55,165 bases of DNA from an uncultured Gammaproteobacteria bacterium. Lineage in GTDB: Bacteria > Patescibacteriota > Microgenomatia > UBA8517. The stretch spans positions 1-55,165 of the forward strand of contig CAYMZX010000013.1 in assembly GCA_964395115.1 (NCBI GenBank), read 5' to 3'. The translations under genes were made by a program, and so were the position numbers. The notes under the pieces were generated by a model. The model had not been told where the DNA came from, made no database searches, and saw only the letters and a list, made by a program, of their open reading frames with translations. How positions within the stretch are numbered: position 1 is the first letter of the stretch; each line of letters starts with the position of its first letter. This document shows, one piece after another, positions 2,080-14,104 of this stretch.

Positions 2080-2829
2080 TTAACTTTTGAGGGCTTCTTC
2101 AATTGTCTGCTTCAACATTTCAAAAGGTACCGCGCCGGGAATTACCCAAACTTCTCCTTTTTTATTAATAATAAAAACCCCGGGCGTGCCAGTAACTCCC
2201 GCCGCTAACCCGCTCTGATAATGCTCCTCTACTTTATCTTTGTATTTCCCGCTGTCAAGGCAGTTCTTAAACTTGGTCGAGTTTAATCCGACATCTTTTG
2301 CATATGTAGGAAGCTTGGTCAAATCAAGCGTGTTGTTCCCGGCGGTTACTTCAAAAATCTTATCTATAAATTTCCAAAAACCCTCTTCTCCTCCAAGTTC
2401 AAAAGCGCATTCGGCCGCTTCCGCCTCTTTATCGGCTTTAGGATGAATGCTGTCCAATGGAAAGTGCCTGTAAATCCAGGCAACCTTCCCCTTATATTCT
2501 TCGACCGCTTGTTTGGCGGTAAAGTGGAACTGCTTGCAGGCTGGACACTCCAAATCCGAGTATTCAACAAGGAAGACTTCGGCATCGAGAGATCCTAGAA
2601 TGTGATCTTTATCGCTTGGCTTTTCGACTTTTTGGGCCGCTTCTTCAGAAAGTTTGCCGACGGTATCATTTGGAATAGTATCATTTGAGGGTGCTTGCTG
2701 AGAATTGGCTACTTTTTCCTTTTCTAAGAGAGAAACTTTTTGCCATAAAGCACCTACCAGAAAGGCCAGGGCGACAGTCAAAACAAGCAGGATGGGAATA
2801 AATTTCTCGAGAAGATTTCTCTTCGCCAT
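2080..2829 (-). CDS. Membrane-anchored DsbA-family thiol:disulfide oxidoreductase
   Basis: N-terminal TM helix (IPILLVLTVALAFLVGALW). Thioredoxin fold with CPAC active site (YSDLECPACKQFH) and a C-terminal GTPGVFI cis-Pro loop, as in DsbA/BdbD. Confidence 0.8.
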   Translation of the reverse strand: MAKRNLLEKFIPILLVLTVALAFLVGALWQKVSLLEKEKVANSQQAPSNDTIPNDTVGKLSEEAAQKVEKPSDKDHILGSLDAEVFLVEYSDLECPACKQFHFTAKQAVEEYKGKVAWIYRHFPLDSIHPKADKEAEAAECAFELGGEEGFWKFIDKIFEVTAGNNTLDLTKLPTYAKDVGLNSTKFKNCLDSGKYKDKVEEHYQSGLAAGVTGTPGVFIINKKGEVWVIPGAVPFEMLKQTIEEALKS

Positions 2830-2861: not shown

Positions 2862-3830
2862 TCAACCAGCTCTATTTGAAAAGTCCTGGCAAAACTTTAC
2901 CGCTTCTATTCCCGCCATGCACCCGAAACCGGCAGCCGTTATTGCCTGTTTATATACATAGTCATGAACATCGCCGGCAACAAACACTCCGGAAACGGAA
3001 GTTTTAGTATGGTCAAAAACTTTGACATATCCTCTTTCGTCAAGTTCGATTTTCCCCTTAAAAATACTTGTCGAGGGAGAATGGCCAATAGCAATAAATA
3101 GTCCATCAACAGTAAGCTCTTTAGTTGTCTGATCCTTGTTGTTAATTAAAATCACCTTTTCTAATTTCTGAGTTCCTTTAACTTCTTTTACCTCAGTGTT
3201 CCATAAAACCTTAATTTTCGGCTCTGATAACACTTTCTTCTGCATAATGGCCGATGCTCGAAAGGCATCGCGCCGATGAACAATTACGATTTCTTTAGCG
3301 TATTTTGCCAAGGTGAGCGCTTCTTCCATAGCCGAGTCTCCCCCTCCAACTACCATCACTTTTTTATCTTTAAAAAATGGGGCGTCGCAGGGGGCACAAG
3401 AAGAAACTCCTCGGCCTATAAATTCTTTCACCCCTGGAGCATCCAGCCAGTTTGTCTCAGCACCACTGGCTATAATAAGAGATTTGGCAAAATATTTCTT
3501 TCCATCAGCGGATATTTCGAAGGGTCGCAAAGAAAGGTCTATAGTTTCTGCGTTTTTCTCGATAAACTCTGCCCCAAAAGATTGAGCGTGCTCTCTCATT
3601 TTCTTCATCAGTTCTGGTCCTTGAATGCCAGAAAGTCCTGGAAAGTTATCAACGGCAGTTGTCAACATAAGTTGGCCTCCCCATTTTTCCCCTCCGATAA
3701 TTAACGTGGAAGCAGCTCCTCTCGTAGTGTAAATGGCCGCAGTTAATCCCGCCGGACCTGAACCAATAATAATTACATCCCATGGCCCGCTGGGATCTGC
3801 CGGTTTGGGCGCGAAAATTTGCTTTTCCAC
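2862..3830 (-). CDS. trxB: Thioredoxin-disulfide reductase
   Basis: FAD motif IIIGSGPAGLTAAIY, redox-active CAPCD, NADPH motif VVGGGDSAMEEA, C-terminal GVFVAGD. GTG start preceded by SD GAGGGG. Confidence 0.92.
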   Translation of the reverse strand: MEKQIFAPKPADPSGPWDVIIIGSGPAGLTAAIYTTRGAASTLIIGGEKWGGQLMLTTAVDNFPGLSGIQGPELMKKMREHAQSFGAEFIEKNAETIDLSLRPFEISADGKKYFAKSLIIASGAETNWLDAPGVKEFIGRGVSSCAPCDAPFFKDKKVMVVGGGDSAMEEALTLAKYAKEIVIVHRRDAFRASAIMQKKVLSEPKIKVLWNTEVKEVKGTQKLEKVILINNKDQTTKELTVDGLFIAIGHSPSTSIFKGKIELDERGYVKVFDHTKTSVSGVFVAGDVHDYVYKQAITAAGFGCMAGIEAVKFCQDFSNRAG

Positions 3831-3840
3831 GATACCCCTC

Positions 3841-4164
3841 TTAAAATGCGGCTGGGGGCGGGGTGACGCCCCCTCCCGGAACTCCCCCTCCCGACGTCCC
3901 CTCTCCCGGTGATTGTTTTTCTTCTTCCGTAGGCTCGGTTACTGGAACAGTCGGGGTAGGCGTTGGCTCCGGTGCTTCTCCTGGAGCTTCCGTTGGCATT
4001 TCTGAAGGAGACCGTACTGGTTCGGGCGAAGGCTGGGCGGGAGTAGGAGTAGTCGGCTCAACCGGAGCAGCCGGCGGTGTCGGGCTGGGAGTGAATCCTC
4101 CTCCCGACGGGGTACTGACTGGCTGTTGGTCTTGTTGTTGATCTTGCGGATCCAAAATAATCAC
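3841..4164 (-). CDS. Proline/Thr/Glu-rich low-complexity protein of unknown function, between trxA and trxB
   Basis: Open frame with SD GGGGGTGA immediately after the trxA stop. The likely start is TTG at 4155 (5 nt after the SD) rather than GTG at 4164. Its stop is directly followed by the trxB SD. The stretch is visibly more GC-rich than its neighbours, and the antisense frame is also open, as expected for low-complexity GC-rich sequence. Confidence 0.5.
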   Translation of the reverse strand: MIILDPQDQQQDQQPVSTPSGGGFTPSPTPPAAPVEPTTPTPAQPSPEPVRSPSEMPTEAPGEAPEPTPTPTVPVTEPTEEEKQSPGEGTSGGGVPGGGVTPPPAAF

Positions 4165-4170
4165 CCCCTT

Positions 4171-4491
4171 TTAAATAGCTTTTTTTATCAAGTCTTCAAA
4201 AAAGTTCTTACCGGCAAAACCTACTTGACGCCCTATTTCTTTTCCCTGATTGAAAAGGACGGTCGTAGGAATAGACATTACCTGGTATTTCCCGGTAGTC
4301 AGCGGATTTTCATCAACATTTAATTTAGCAATTTCGACTTTTCCTTTGTACGTCTCGGAAAGTTCCTCTAGAACCGGCTCGGCCAATTTGCAAGGACCGC
4401 ACCACGAAGCCCAAAAATCAACCAGTACAGGCAGACTAGATTTTATGACTTTGTTTTCAAAATCCTTATCGGTTACCGGCCAAGTCGCCAT
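4171..4491 (-). CDS. trxA: Thioredoxin
   Basis: WASWCGPCK active site; typical ~106-aa thioredoxin starting MATWPVTDKDFENKV. The TTG at 4530 in the track coincides with a -35 box, so ATG 4491 is preferred. Confidence 0.9.
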   Translation of the reverse strand: MATWPVTDKDFENKVIKSSLPVLVDFWASWCGPCKLAEPVLEELSETYKGKVEIAKLNVDENPLTTGKYQVMSIPTTVLFNQGKEIGRQVGFAGKNFFEDLIKKAI

Positions 4492-4500
4492 AATCGTTTC

Positions 4501-4530
4501 AATATAGCCTCTGGGGTAGGAGTAAGTCAA
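4501..4530 (-). promoter_or_regulatory. Promoter of the trxA operon (near-leaderless)
   Basis: Minus strand TTGACT (4530-4525), 18 nt spacer, TATATT (4506-4501). Only 9 nt separate the -10 box from ATG 4491, and there is no SD. Confidence 0.5.
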
Positions 4531-4611: not shown

Positions 4612-4640
4612 TTGATTTTAGTTTTTTCCAAATCTATGAT
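4612..4640 (+). promoter_or_regulatory. Promoter of the divergent CxxC operon (leaderless geometry)
   Basis: TTGATT (4612-4617), 17 nt spacer, TATGAT (4635-4640), then 6 nt to ATG 4647. No SD is possible. Confidence 0.5.
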
Positions 4641-4646
4641 TTATTC

Positions 4647-5015
4647 ATGAGAAAATTTATTGTCATCATTATCCTGACGACCCTTCTAATAATCGGGGTT
4701 GGAATTTTCTATTCAACAAAGAGTTCTAAAAAATCTCTAGGTTTATCTTCGGGATACGAGTATTACTGGAGCACCACCTGCCCGCACTGTGCTAGGGTTC
4801 AGGAATTCATGGATTCCTGGGAGGGTACGGCTAAAATCTCTCTTGAGAAAAAGGAAGTCGACTCCCCAATCAATTCAAACCTTTTAGTGAGGCGGGCTAG
4901 CGCCTGCAATATTTCCGTGAGTGATATCGGCGTGCCCTTTCTTTTTACGCCCGAGGGGAAATGCATCATTGGCGACGAACCGATTATTGAATATCTTAAA
5001 AACTTAAATTTATGA
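4647..5015 (+). CDS. Membrane-anchored thioredoxin/glutaredoxin-fold protein, CPHC active site
   Basis: N-terminal TM helix (FIVIIILTTLLIIGVGIF), then YYWSTTCPHCARVQEF and a later GVPFLF cis-Pro-like loop. Confidence 0.65.
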   Translation: MRKFIVIIILTTLLIIGVGIFYSTKSSKKSLGLSSGYEYYWSTTCPHCARVQEFMDSWEGTAKISLEKKEVDSPINSNLLVRRASACNISVSDIGVPFLFTPEGKCIIGDEPIIEYLKNLNL

Positions 5016-5566
5016 ACTTAAAAACGAAATCATCCTCGATTCTTTTATTGCTTTTTTCGCTTTTCACTATCCACTATTCACTATTCACCCGTGAAGCGTT
5101 CGCCGTTTGTCCTCTTTGTACCATCGCGGTTGGGACAGGTTTAGGACTCTCGAGGTGGTTTGGAATCGACGATTCGGTTTCCGGAATTTGGGTGGGGGGG
5201 CTTATTATTTCTCTTTCTTTCTGGCTTGCCGATTGGTTATCTAAAAAAAATCTAAAAATTCTAAAAAAATTGGGTCATCGAACTCTGGTTATCGTCTCAA
5301 CCGTTTTTTGGTCTCTCCTGACTTTTCTGCCTCTTTGGAAAACCGGCATTATCGGCCATCCCTTTAACACAATTCTCGGTATTGATAAGCTTTTGTTTGG
5401 AAGCATTCTGGGGGCAGGCGCCTTCTTGATAGGAACTTTTGTAGATAAAGAGGTCAGACAAATCAAAAAGGGGCAACTTTTCTCTTTTCAGAAAATTGTT
5501 TTTCCGCTCGTTTCACTTGTTTTTTCCAGCTTGGTTGTCTACTTTTACGGAGGACGCCTTTTATGA
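5012..5566 (+). CDS. Polytopic membrane protein with a single CPLC motif after a signal-like segment; unknown family
   Basis: Signal-like N-terminus ending AFA, then VCPLCTIAVGTGLG entering a TM helix. I count about 5 hydrophobic segments. ATGA start/stop overlap with the upstream gene. Confidence 0.55.
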   Translation: MNLKTKSSSILLLLFSLFTIHYSLFTREAFAVCPLCTIAVGTGLGLSRWFGIDDSVSGIWVGGLIISLSFWLADWLSKKNLKILKKLGHRTLVIVSTVFWSLLTFLPLWKTGIIGHPFNTILGIDKLLFGSILGAGAFLIGTFVDKEVRQIKKGQLFSFQKIVFPLVSLVFSSLVVYFYGGRLL

Positions 5567-6102
5567 CAAAAATTAACGACTATAAATCTTTACTTCAGAG
5601 AGTTGAAAGTGCAATCGCCCAAAAGGATCTTGATCTTTCGGCAGGGGAAGATCTTTCTATTGGAATAATGAATTTAATCTCCATTGAGGAACACCTTTTT
5701 TACACCGCCCAAAAGACAAAAAACACCAAATATCTTGACCTTTTAAATGAGGTAAGGGCAATGAGAATCGATCTTCTTAAAGATATCATTAAAGATTATG
5801 AGGGAGAGATCTGGTGTATCAGCAAACACCTTCTGGCCGCCTCAATGAGACTTATGGAAGTGGGAACCAAAGAACTTAAGAAAGGCGGCAAAGAAAAAGC
5901 GCGGTCCCTTTTTGAAAAGTCATATAAACTTTATTCATTGTTTTGGGGAATGAATCTAGGGGTTAACACAAAAGACAACCTTGAAAGGAAGGATAGTAAT
6001 GTTAATTTTATCGACGAAGAAGGAAGGAAAAAGGGGTCTGTTTCTGTCTTTGCTAAATTAAGGTCTTTAATTCAAAAAGCCGTTGACTGCTGCAAAGAAT
6101 AA
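5563..6102 (+). CDS. Hypothetical helical protein ending in a vicinal Cys pair (..VDCCKE)
   Basis: Long ORF with an ATGA overlap to the upstream membrane protein. No TM segment and no family recognised. Confidence 0.5.
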   Translation: MTKINDYKSLLQRVESAIAQKDLDLSAGEDLSIGIMNLISIEEHLFYTAQKTKNTKYLDLLNEVRAMRIDLLKDIIKDYEGEIWCISKHLLAASMRLMEVGTKELKKGGKEKARSLFEKSYKLYSLFWGMNLGVNTKDNLERKDSNVNFIDEEGRKKGSVSVFAKLRSLIQKAVDCCKE

Positions 6103-6123: not shown

Positions 6124-6663
6124 TTAAAGTAAGACTACGAAAAACAAAAAAATAATTAAACACATCCACCAATAGTATTTTTGTCCTCGTTCCTTTATCT
6201 CTAATGGAAAATTTCTTAACCAATTTGCTAGAGAGCCCATCTCGGTAAGATCAACCGCCTCGTCTACCAGAAGGTGCAAACAAAAAGCCAAGACTACCCC
6301 TTTCCCCATCACGCTGTTGGAAGAGGTTAAAACAAAAAATGTCAAAATCAGAAAGAGAAGTTGAAAAATGACAGTATGAAAGATAAGCCGGGTCCGGTCG
6401 GACCGGGTTTCGGCCAAGAGATTCATCGAGCCTAAAAAATCCCTTTTGCAAATCATGTAGCTCACCCTTTGCGAAGTAAGCTCTTGTGGTCGAAGGAAAA
6501 AAATGTATATAAGATGGTCGAGATCGGGCAAAATCGTTCCGATAACCCCGCTTAACCAAAAAGGCCAGTAAGAAAGATTAAGCCAGCCTTTTAAAAGAGA
6601 GGCCAAAATTAAAAAAGAAAAAAGAAAGCTTAAGTGAATGAAAATTTCTCTCTTCATCGGCAA
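6124..6663 (-). CDS. Integral membrane protein, possibly YdjM/DUF457-like metal-dependent hydrolase
   Basis: Multiple TM segments. LPDLDHLIY, HTV and HLLVDE motifs resemble DUF457. Confidence 0.4.
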   Translation of the reverse strand: MPMKREIFIHLSFLFSFLILASLLKGWLNLSYWPFWLSGVIGTILPDLDHLIYIFFLRPQELTSQRVSYMICKRDFLGSMNLLAETRSDRTRLIFHTVIFQLLFLILTFFVLTSSNSVMGKGVVLAFCLHLLVDEAVDLTEMGSLANWLRNFPLEIKERGQKYYWWMCLIIFLFFVVLL

Positions 6664-12395: not shown

Positions 12396-14104
12396 CGTAA
12401 GATTTTTTGCATTTCAAATAGTTGTTTTAGTTCTTCTAAACTAGTTACTTCTTTGGGCCCCTTTTCATCCCTGAAACGAATAAGTCGGGGGAATCTTAAT
12501 GCCAAACCGGCTGAATGAACTGGACTTTTGGTAATCTCATCGGCCAATATCTCGACCACCAAAGAAGGCTTTATCCACACATCAGGAATTAAGTTTTTGT
12601 CAACCTGGTATTCTGCCGGGGGCTTGCCGACTTTAAGCCTTTCTGTTCTCTCATTTAATTCTCGCCATTGTTCGTCGGACAATCCTGTTCCGATTTTGGA
12701 AACACTTACAAACTTCTCTCCCTCAGCTACCCCTACCAAAAACGCTCCGACTCCAAATCCGGCCCTCTTGCCCTTTCCTCTATTAACTCCCATTACCAAA
12801 CAGTCAATCGTATCAGCTACCCCTTCCTCGGTTGTTTTTTTGTATTTCACCCAGTGAAAGCCCCTCGCTCCAGCCTTATAGACGGCGTCGATTTTTTTAA
12901 TAAGAGCCCCTTCCAATCCTTCGGAAAGATAAGTTTTTATCAGGTCTCGAATTTTGTCTGGAGAATCGGTTATTTCTTGACGGGTAATTTCAATCTTACC
13001 ATTGCCCAATTTGATACCTTCGAGAAGTTTTCTTCTCTCATAAAAAGGAATTTCCAACAGGGAGTCTCCGTTCAGAAATAATACGTCGAAAAGGAAAAGC
13101 TTTAAAGGAAGCCTGGAGGCTATCTCTGAAATATCATATTTTCTTTTCCTCTGGACAGTTTCTTGGAAGGGTAGAAATTTCCCGGTTTTGGTATCATATC
13201 CGATCGCCTCTCCATCAAAGATCGCTTCTTCAACTTCGATTTTCCCGGCTGCCTCCACTAGATCAGGGAACATTGCTGTTGTATTTTCCAAATTTCTAGA
13301 AAAAATCATTATTTTTTTCTTCCTGTCCTTATTATAAATATGAACTTGGGCTCGAAAACCATCGTATTTTGGCTCGACAACAACTTTCTTGCCAACCTTT
13401 TCCAAAATCTTTTCCGCCGAAGGTAATCTCTCGGCCAACGAAGGCCTAATGGGAATCCCAGGTTTTGGTTTAATTACCTCCAGGCCGGCAATACCCCTCT
13501 CTTTTGCCAATCGAGCGATGTAACCAATATCGGCGGTCACATTAAAAGCCGCCTCTAATGTAACCCTGCCGCTCTTGTTCCCTTTCAACATAACACTTAA
13601 GGCGTCCAAAATTGTCATGTCAGAAAATCCCAAACGAAGCCTTCCAACCGGTATTCTGGCCACAAATCGACAGGATTCCCCGTCTAAAGAAGAAAGGAGT
13701 TCTGCCATTTTAGCTATTTTCTTTTCCTGGCTTCCAGTACCCCCAAAATTGGCCACTTCCATAAGCCGATCATATACTTCGGTCACAGAAAGCCCTTTGT
13801 CTTTCCGTCGACAAAGCTTTTCGGCTACATTTCCCAAATCTCCTTCTTGTTTAAATCTAAAGGCTACATTTTCGACCGCTACATTGAAAGCTTGAGAAAT
13901 TACTCTAATCATCATCTTTTCTGCCAAATTAAGGACCTTCCCTTGGTAATTCGGAAGGAGTTGCCCGTAAAGGAGATAAACCGTCTTGTCTATTTCCTCA
14001 CTTGGTGTTTTGGTAAATAGTTCGGATAATATCAGGGTCATTTCATTCCTCGAGGAAGTTTTTTCCAGTCGACTAAGATAGGCGGCGAGGTCTTTAAACT
14101 TCAT
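12392..14104 (-). CDS. lig: ATP-dependent DNA ligase (archaeal/eukaryotic Lig1-like, with N-terminal DNA-binding domain)
   Basis: Adenylation motif I EPKYDGFRAQVH and motifs EGALIKK / WVKYKK. ATG 14104 (MKFKDLAAYL) is preferred over the GTG at 14122. Confidence 0.88.
   Translation of the reverse strand: MKFKDLAAYLSRLEKTSSRNEMTLILSELFTKTPSEEIDKTVYLLYGQLLPNYQGKVLNLAEKMMIRVISQAFNVAVENVAFRFKQEGDLGNVAEKLCRRKDKGLSVTEVYDRLMEVANFGGTGSQEKKIAKMAELLSSLDGESCRFVARIPVGRLRLGFSDMTILDALSVMLKGNKSGRVTLEAAFNVTADIGYIARLAKERGIAGLEVIKPKPGIPIRPSLAERLPSAEKILEKVGKKVVVEPKYDGFRAQVHIYNKDRKKKIMIFSRNLENTTAMFPDLVEAAGKIEVEEAIFDGEAIGYDTKTGKFLPFQETVQRKRKYDISEIASRLPLKLFLFDVLFLNGDSLLEIPFYERRKLLEGIKLGNGKIEITRQEITDSPDKIRDLIKTYLSEGLEGALIKKIDAVYKAGARGFHWVKYKKTTEEGVADTIDCLVMGVNRGKGKRAGFGVGAFLVGVAEGEKFVSVSKIGTGLSDEQWRELNERTERLKVGKPPAEYQVDKNLIPDVWIKPSLVVEILADEITKSPVHSAGLALRFPRLIRFRDEKGPKEVTSLEELKQLFEMQKILR

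Follow-up and report, generated by a model that had tools for sequence, protein, structure and literature searches.

A conserved three-gene module of Patescibacteria as a candidate transmembrane thiol-disulfide relay

Three overlapping genes on a contig of 55,165 nucleotides (CAYMZX010000013.1, assembly GCA_964395115.1; the whole contig is the window analysed here) belong to a module that recurs across Patescibacteria and may carry reducing power through the membrane to exported proteins. The host is an uncultured ultra-small bacterium with a 648-kb genome that is 97% complete. The genes, here called G1, G2 and G3 and together the triad, are plus-strand open reading frames (ORFs) joined by ATGA start/stop overlaps at 5012-5015 and 5563-5566, just as a first-pass annotation of this DNA had read them:

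4647..5015, plus strand: G1, 122 amino acids (aa), a glutaredoxin/thioredoxin-fold protein with a CPHC motif and an N-terminal transmembrane (TM) anchor
5012..5566, plus strand: G2, 184 aa, a membrane protein of an uncharacterised family with a CPLC motif
5563..6102, plus strand: G3, 179 aa, a cytoplasmic protein of an uncharacterised family with C85 and a C-terminal CC

We propose that the triad is a non-homologous analogue of the CcdA/DsbD reductive relay, with electrons passing from NAD(P)H through TrxB/TrxA to G3, then to G2 and finally to G1, a reading that we consider roughly an even call. The same genes had at first been read as a possible disulfide-relay module. The conserved three-gene module stands, but we favour a reductive, DsbD/CcdA-like direction over the action of a DsbB-like oxidase.

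Gene order is kept over long distances. Among 80 related loci, drawn from one-genome-per-species contigs, G1-G2-G3 are consecutive on one strand in 60, spread across Patescibacteria, so that the synteny anticipated from the window alone is borne out; G2-G3 are consecutive in 71. Relatives of G1 occur in 69 of these loci and relatives of G3 in 74, and adjacent genes of the triad are separated by a few bases or overlap slightly. All genome-level counts come from 201 genomes sampled evenly over the phylum, of which 23 (about 11%) have G2 and 28 have G3. G3 accompanies G2 in 22 of the 23 G2-positive genomes, and in the sole exception G2 lies on a 2.5-kb contig. The module is accessory and patchy, and its conserved arrangement supports the view that the triad acts as a functional unit. 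No description of the system was found in the literature.

The only cysteines of G2 are those of C33-P-L-C36, and they form the only invariant columns among 78 diverse G2 sequences of about 30-40% identity; over 90% of these representatives also share P34, G51, D53, D54, W60 and G62. A word-indexed search found 358 relatives, all named hypothetical, and an exhaustive search found 444 representatives at 50% identity, unnamed and mostly labelled Patescibacteria. G2 has no Pfam or NCBIfam match, a Pfam scan of all 78 aligned homologues gave no consistent family, and a sequence-profile search of the PDB with G2 found nothing. Its AlphaFold2 (AF2) model is confident (predicted local distance difference test, pLDDT, 90.6). 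Fold searches with G2 returned a best Foldseek match to the PDB of E = 1 and, in a wide VIA search, a best Z of 6.9 to generic helical proteins at background level, values that do not exclude a CcdA/DsbD fold. The profile searches first suggested for the 184-aa protein thus match it to no known family or fold.

The predicted layout of G2 is a signal-like helix, then V-C-P-L-C at the start of a short helix, then four TM helices. Following the first helix is a conserved P-x-x-A-x-A, then V-C-P-x-C; the former resembles a signal-peptidase I site, and if a signal peptide is cleaved there, CPxC would become residues 2-5 of mature G2. A helix begins at residue 34 in the AF2 model, so CPxC sits at a helix N-terminus, which is where redox-active CxxC motifs sit in thioredoxin-fold proteins. 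Across the 78 sequences, loops 79-88 and 146-161 are K/R-rich and loops 50-54 and 111-125 are acidic or neutral, and because of the positive-inside rule these charges put CPxC, the GIDD motif and loop 111-125 outside. Judged from loop charges and from the added helices of the fusion proteins described below, CPxC faces outward, in the outer half of the membrane. The first-pass annotation had staked its redox proposal on a motif that is conserved among homologues and lies outside the cytoplasm, and on both points the alignment and the predicted topology agree with it.

G2 was compared with the known carrier families, and each was rejected on sequence and cysteine pattern. CcdA/DsbD proteins (PF02683, PF13386) are expected to have two essential cysteines, one in TM1 and one in TM4, each within a Pro-Cys motif of an internal repeat, and at least six TM helices. 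In G2 a lone CPxC precedes the first mature helix and the TM helices number 4-5, and neither it nor its 78 homologues match these Pfam families. An hhalign comparison of the G2 profile with neighbouring DsbD_2/X proteins gave a probability of 0.4%. DsbB (PF02600) was rejected for want of a Pfam match and because G2 has one cysteine pair, where DsbB has two periplasmic pairs on a four-helix bundle with a quinone site; VKOR (PF07884), which has CxxC in its last core TM helix and a second pair in a loop, was set aside on the same two grounds, and a true VKOR coexists with the triad in sister genomes. The initial impression that CPLC holds all of the cysteines of G2, and that the protein fits none of DsbB, VKOR or CcdA, therefore extends to sequence, profile and cysteine pattern alike.

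G1 carries two further cysteines, C87 and C106, besides C45-P-H-C48. All four, together with a cis-Pro (V96-P97), are invariant in 69 sequences (the window G1 and 68 homologues). A thioredoxin/glutaredoxin fold was assigned by the presence of CxxC, a cis-Pro loop about 45-50 residues further on and a G-rich turn after strand 4, and the 69 sequences show little or no variation at C45-P-H-C48, V96-P97 and G109. The window G1 scores 18 bits against Pfam Glutaredoxin, where the gathering cut-off is 22.9 bits; among fused homologues P0148 (22.4 bits) also falls below the cut-off, and P0293 (23.4 bits) and P0301 (28.4 bits) pass it. CPHC is present in 60 of the 65 G1 copies that adjoin G2. Membership of the DsbA family (PF01323/PF13462) was rejected, since G1 has no DSBA/Thioredoxin_4 match and shares the CPHC motif only; nor does it hold a helical insertion, for which the approximately 85 residues after the anchor leave no room. 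Standalone G1 proteins have a net charge of +1.7 before the anchor versus +0.2 after it, and from this bias the glutaredoxin (Grx) domain is predicted to face outside. A lipobox was found in none of the 68 homologues, which does not support a lipoprotein form. Fold residues, anchor and charge bias agree with the original description of G1 as an extracytoplasmic, membrane-anchored thioredoxin-fold protein.

G3 is the most conserved of the three proteins. It has no signal peptide or TM segment, it ends in ...VDCCKE, and it contains an additional cysteine, C85, which is invariant and had escaped the first reading of the sequence. In 68 sequences the invariant residues are E42, E43, H44, E82, C85, K88, H89, R96, E99, C176, C177 and E179. 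The AF2 model, with a core pLDDT above 90, has a four-helix bundle (residues ~26-131), a disordered linker (135-167) and a C-terminal helix that ends C176-C177-x-E, consistent with the soluble helical protein with a vicinal CC end that had been described. No Pfam or NCBIfam match was found for G3, and a Pfam scan of all 68 aligned homologues gave no consistent family. Fold searches reached a best E of 0.08 (Foldseek against the PDB) and a best Z of 8.4 (VIA), background-level helical matches; a PDB sequence-profile search gave nothing, and the ESM Atlas yielded no family besides that of G3 itself, which is unnamed. Rubrerythrin and EncB match at Z ~8, within the background for helical bundles and with no Pfam match, and the G3 pattern of E42-E43-H44 and E82-x2-C85-x3-H89 differs from the ExxH pattern of ferritin-like proteins and rubrerythrins.

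In about 20 homologues of G3 the protein is interrupted by an intein (Intein_splicing and LAGLIDADG) whose insertion point is exactly W84|C85, so that the invariant C85 is the +1 splice residue; examples are L033 (an ORF of 582 aa), P0269-P0273 and others. Intein insertion sites mark functionally key residues, and the position of this one points to C85 as functionally central. An intein in an uncharacterised protein outside replication is unusual. G3-like genes also lie on contigs labelled archaeal, labels that are unverified: L097 (Methanotrichaceae archaeon, 3986-4525), L065 and L073. Both L065 and L073 carry G2 with G3, and L073 also G1; the L097 copy of G3 ends ...VCKESL, with a single cysteine in place of CC.

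Gene fusions tie the three proteins to one another. G1-G2 fusions occur in many clusters and also in genomes G069 and G153. In each of the six that we examined, two hydrophobic segments separate the Grx domain from CPxC; most have a K/R-rich loop between these segments, with as many as 9 K/R, and four of the six also have a K/R-rich N-terminal flank. Because of the extra TM helix, the Grx domain and CPxC would lie on the same, outer side. Such fusions support G2 as a dedicated membrane partner of the CPHC protein. G2 had earlier been put forward as a redox partner for two exported thioredoxin-fold proteins of the window, at 4647 (G1) and at 2080 (DsbA-like). The fusions favour the pairing with G1; the pairing with the DsbA-like protein fares poorly, as DsbA lies near the triad in 4 of the 80 loci, with DsbA-type genes at background frequency.

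A second kind of fusion is soluble. These proteins (471-500 aa, no TM segment, several multi-member clusters) combine an NADP-binding domain of PF03807/NpdG-like type, a G3 bundle at 65% identity, a G1-like Grx domain and a CC tail that ends NCCKE. The Grx domain, in which all four G1 cysteines are aligned (E 8e-8), is inserted in the linker that is disordered in the AF2 model of G3. Shorter G3-plus-Grx proteins are found on contigs of 50-68% GC and so would come from outside Patescibacteria; the gene neighbours of soluble G3-Grx fusions on high-GC contigs are varied and uninformative. The NADP-domain and G3-Grx fusions argue that G3 and G1-type domains are direct partners and that NAD(P)H can feed the system.

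The proteins that stand in for G2 are equally telling. Six of the 201 sampled genomes have G3 without G2, and we inspected five. Four of them have a LysE/DsbD-superfamily membrane protein (208-289 aa) just ahead of G3, and three of the four proteins carry NPC in TM1 and FPC in TM4, the hallmark cysteines of CcdA/DsbD; their matches to the DsbD_TM, SfLAP, DsbD and ArsG models are below threshold. A CPHC protein follows or lies close to G3 in three of these four loci. Going by gene order and sequence comparison, G2 takes the place in the operon that a CcdA/DsbD-type carrier has elsewhere, yet shows no homology to one. In the fifth genome G3 is preceded by a MerTP-like gene (NF033556, E 1e-23, below the curated cut-off), which hints that G3 also partners metal transporters. 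This MerTP-like protein (L086, G198:C83, 116-736) has FCCLTP in TM1 and a C-terminal HMA CxxC, and is encoded on a 2.2-kb contig.

Clustering of neighbouring ORFs gave three architectures around the triad. In the copper type, CsoR is divergent from DsbD_2-cupredoxin, HMA, G1, G2 and G3. The ArsR type runs ArsR, an MTH895/ArsE-type thioredoxin, an ArsP_1 permease, an ArsF-like thioredoxin with CWSC, ArsG/DsbD_2 and G1-G2-G3, sometimes with a ferredoxin between ArsG/DsbD_2 and G1; the ArsF-like thioredoxin and ArsG/DsbD_2, directly upstream of G1-G2, form a parallel pair. In the TrxB type, the form seen in this window, TrxB (and TrxA) is divergent from G1-G2-G3. Across the 80 loci, metal-linked neighbours occur in 40, thiol-redox neighbours in 30 and neither kind in 30, with TrxB beside the triad in 10 and TrxA in 6. 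A second, divergent G2 paralogue lies on the strand opposite the triad in L002, L004, L015, L021, L026 and L032, in the order c24, G2, DUF1573 protein, CsoR. As this paralogue adjoins a DUF1573 gene, G2-type proteins would have exported partners outside the thioredoxin-like group as well. In the window's own genome there is one gene of the DsbD_TM family, fused to an HMA domain and placed behind a CsoR-like gene on another contig. The statement that no CcdA homologue is visible accordingly holds for the island but has to be qualified for the genome. That locus (L001, contig 7, 1-1943) comprises the CsoR-like gene and the HMA-DsbD_TM fusion, which is cut by the contig end; it is an operon of the copper type and is next to recA.

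These observations can be joined in a model of the triad as a reductive relay. Electrons would enter in the cytoplasm from NAD(P)H through TrxB/TrxA, divergently encoded here and presumed to be functionally linked, and would reach G3, whose C85 and flexible C-terminal CC arm would serve as the inner thiol station. G3 would pass the reducing equivalents to the CPxC of G2, the arm presumably reaching the G2 cysteines, and G2 CPxC would then reduce the CPHC of G1 at the cell surface. There, G1 may reduce or reshuffle disulfides in surface proteins, or keep their cysteines reduced; such proteins are its putative substrates. We infer that the flow is reductive and outward, a direction favoured because of the NADP-domain fusions, the trxB/trxA neighbours and the exchange of G2 for CcdA/DsbD-like proteins. 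The copper and ArsR operons of relatives suggest that the main use is protection of the envelope against thiol-reactive metals. A broader proposal is that G2 and G3 represent an unrecognised class of transmembrane thiol-disulfide electron transporter, in which G3 would swing a CC arm fed by TrxB/TrxA or an NpdG-like domain. G3 would in that case be a general adaptor, serving G2, CcdA/DsbD-like and MerT-like carriers and, in high-GC bacteria, working as a soluble enzyme that reduces a Grx-like domain with NADPH. We advance this broader proposal tentatively and think it rather more apt to fail than to hold.

Several points weigh against a reductive relay. One concerns G2, in which the 78 sequences show no conserved intramembrane polar or thiol residues for an electron path from the cytoplasmic side; its single cysteine pair faces outward, and the model gives no route by which G3 would reach it. 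A prediction of the G2+G3 complex scored 0.00, which is evidence neither way. Two single-sequence fusions, P0274 (357 aa, G2-G3) and P0304 (425 aa, DsbD-like-G3), have no added TM helix and attach G3 to a terminus that should lie outside by the predicted topology; they could be artefacts of frameshifts where stop and start codons overlap, or else the topology may not be understood. The conserved Glu and His residues of G3 have no role in the model. CPHC, moreover, is the classic oxidising motif of DsbA and not typical of a reductant. The cytoplasmic G3-Grx fusions keep the full set of four G1 cysteines in a setting where a structural disulfide is unlikely, and a metal site in the four-Cys G1-type domain is possible. 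Finally, half of the 80 loci have the metal-linked neighbours noted above (CsoR, HMA, cupredoxin fusion, ArsR, ArsP-like permease), and one G3 gene follows the MerTP-like gene, contexts that would suit the transfer of metals just as well.

The last two points bear on the main rival, a Mer-like relay for soft metals in which Cu(I), Hg(II) or As(III) would be handed from G1 to G2 to G3 by ligand exchange, or in reverse as efflux under CsoR/ArsR. Besides the 40 metal-linked loci, the triad lies directly behind CsoR/ArsR in L004, L015, L023 and L073, in some loci it follows DsbD2-cupredoxin and a CopZ-like HMA gene, and one G3 comes directly after the MerTP-like gene. The C-terminal vicinal CC of G3 recalls that of MerA, a metal-shuttling motif. 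Conserved His and Glu surround C85, the retained G1 cysteines could be read in the same way, and the only DsbD_TM gene of the window's genome is an HMA fusion behind CsoR. Yet G2 offers no conserved intramembrane ligands to carry an ion, and G1 has a Trx/Grx fold with the cis-Pro typical of redox catalysts, not an HMA or cupredoxin fold. The NADP-binding fusions and the adjacency of trxB indicate a supply of electrons. There is no metal gene near the triad in this window, and 30 of the 80 loci have neither metal nor thiol-redox neighbours. It would also be paradoxical for CsoR derepression to switch on the import of a toxic metal, and Dsb-like systems of purely redox function, Scs among them, are known from copper-stress operons. 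We judge the metal relay unlikely, though it is the competitor to be taken most seriously.

An oxidative pathway is a good deal less probable still. Here the triad would be a quinone-independent analogue of DsbB/VKOR: G1 would oxidise exported proteins, G2 would re-oxidise G1, and G3, possibly with a metal centre, would dispose of the electrons. The DsbA/MdbA motif CPHC, kept in nearly all G1 copies, fits this idea, as does a CPxC at the outer membrane face, where DsbB and VKOR have theirs. A four-helix bundle is the fold of the de novo disulfide generators DsbB, VKOR, Erv and Ero1, and in Erv2 a cysteine pair at the C-terminus acts as the shuttle; the weak structural matches of G3 include di-iron bundles (Z ~8, within background). 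The window's genome has DsbA-like proteins and no match to DsbB or VKOR, the DsbB search having covered this genome only. Across the 201 sampled genomes, however, VKOR occurs in 61 and DsbA-type proteins in 166, the latter about equally often with and without G2. The expectation that triad-bearing genomes lack VKOR was contradicted: four of the 23 G2-positive genomes have it, including all three sampled from the window's own family, and its distance from the triad is 8-9 kb in G003 and G058. In the first of these sister genomes (L087, G003:C1:309000-324000), which has ArsR-Trx3-ArsP-G1-G2-G3, a true VKOR stands at 12657-13121, 8 kb downstream. The window's genome has either lost its VKOR or the gene is unassembled. 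Electron transfer from thiols to NADP+ is thermodynamically uphill, and the NADP-binding fusions and TrxB neighbours imply reducing input. G2 is displaced by reductive CcdA/DsbD-type proteins, not by DsbB/VKOR, and it has one cysteine pair where those enzymes need two. MdbA-like oxidoreductases of the Candidate Phyla Radiation are known to adjoin VKOR (PMC6744442). Because sister genomes hold both the triad and VKOR, the triad is no simple DsbB/VKOR substitute; it is a separate pathway and not the missing oxidase of DsbA. Least probable of all, and one that we would be surprised to see upheld, is a sensor module in which G2 CPxC and G1 would sense thiol or metal stress at the surface and signal through the basic loops to a Cys/His switch in G3, as in zinc-binding anti-sigma domains, with no net transfer. 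In its favour, the conserved features of G2 are all at the outer face, with conservation of charge only in the cytoplasmic loops, G3 is a helical bundle with a conserved CxxxH, and the module is patchy and accessory. But the module shows no consistent linkage to a DNA-binding domain, sigma factor or kinase, G3 is fused to NADP-binding enzyme and Grx domains instead of signalling domains, and the operon is usually downstream of a separate regulator, CsoR or ArsR.

A reductive relay would place the triad beside several known systems. Like CcdA/DsbD with ResA, CcmG or DsbC/G, it combines a cytoplasmic thiol donor, a cysteine-bearing membrane protein and an anchored, exported thioredoxin-fold protein, and most sampled G3-positive, G2-negative genomes have a CcdA/DsbD-type protein in the slot of G2. 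CcdA/DsbD proteins differ in having one cysteine per half-domain (TM1 and TM4) and 6-8 TM helices, against one CPxC and 4-5 helices in G2, and the cytoplasmic partner of the triad is the dedicated G3, not thioredoxin alone. Scs (ScsABCD of Salmonella, Proteus and Caulobacter) sets a membrane ScsB and exported thioredoxin-fold ScsC/ScsD against copper stress, much as the triad occurs in CsoR/CopZ/cupredoxin operons. Yet ScsB is a DsbD homologue and ScsC is DsbA/DsbG-like, no triad protein is homologous to them, and the triad of this window has no adjacent copper gene.

The DsbA-DsbB and MdbA-VKOR pairs share with the triad the CPHC of G1, which is anchored like MdbA, and a CxxC at the outer face of the membrane protein; the G1-G2 fusions recall VKOR-Trx fusions. 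They part company with it in that G2 has a single cysteine pair and no sequence match to DsbB or VKOR, in the coexistence of triad and VKOR in sister genomes, and in the obligatory cytoplasmic partner with NADP-domain fusions. The MerP/MerT/MerA chain likewise has cysteine stations outside, in the membrane and inside, with a C-terminal CC on a flexible arm and a Mer-type gene beside one G3; but G1 has a Grx fold, not HMA, and G2 is unrelated to MerT, MerC or MerF by NCBIfam and Pfam. None of the three triad proteins has a Mer or HMA match in these databases, in a search that did recognise the MerTP-like protein of L086, and MerA was not seen in the 80 loci. The soluble NADP-domain-G3-Grx-CC proteins resemble in their build the fusions of thioredoxin reductase (TrxR) to thioredoxin, in which reductase and Trx-fold substrate share one chain. 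The SCCS tail of insect TrxR, a mobile C-terminal redox centre, is a precedent for a vicinal-cysteine tail in high-Mr enzymes. Their NADP-binding domain, however, is of the F420-oxidoreductase/NpdG type (PF03807) and not that of a flavoprotein disulfide reductase, and G3 has no detectable signature of a flavin-binding family.

To our knowledge, bacteria have few routes by which exported proteins are supplied through the membrane with oxidising or reducing power: DsbB, VKOR and DsbD/CcdA. The triad would follow the same system logic with two families that have no detectable relatives or known fold. Patescibacteria have minimal genomes and need surface proteins for epibiotic life, and roughly a tenth of those sampled keep the module. 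If the relay is real, envelope redox biology would gain a new membrane carrier and a new cytoplasmic donor. It would also explain a recurrent unknown block in the copper and ArsR operons of uncultured bacteria, and give a function to G3, a widespread hypothetical protein that also appears as a soluble NADP-linked enzyme in high-GC bacteria and whose conservation is high enough for an intein to be housed at the key cysteine.

Upstream of the triad the window holds a promoter-like site and a divergent set of thiol-redox genes:

4612..4640, plus strand: promoter-like site TTGATT-17 nt-TATGAT with 9/12 consensus matches, of putative function
4171..4530, minus strand: trxA, thioredoxin (Pfam Thioredoxin, E 1.9e-28), divergent from the triad
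2862..3830, minus strand: trxB, thioredoxin reductase (Pfam Pyr_redox_2, E 5.7e-52), in the divergent operon
2080-2829, minus strand: DsbA/Thioredoxin_4 protein, divergent and upstream of the triad

The promoter-like site stops 6 nt 5' of the G1 ATG, and this spacing indicates that the triad transcript may be leaderless. A leaderless-type promoter had been called here, and the position of the site fits; the site itself is not statistically distinctive, as the region has 5 such sites against 3.5 expected and they are no rarer here than in shuffled sequence. The true start of trxA is probably the ATG at 4491. Between trxB and trxA lies a Pro/Thr/Glu-rich ORF of 107 aa without a family (3841-4164, minus strand), and a similar small ORF (cluster c22, 87 aa) is found between TrxB and the triad in five related loci. 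On the other side, the gene of a YdjM-like membrane protein (6124-6663, minus strand; a sub-threshold Pfam score of 23.7 bits) runs convergently towards the end of G3, and the same family is the convergent downstream neighbour in nine of the 80 related loci.

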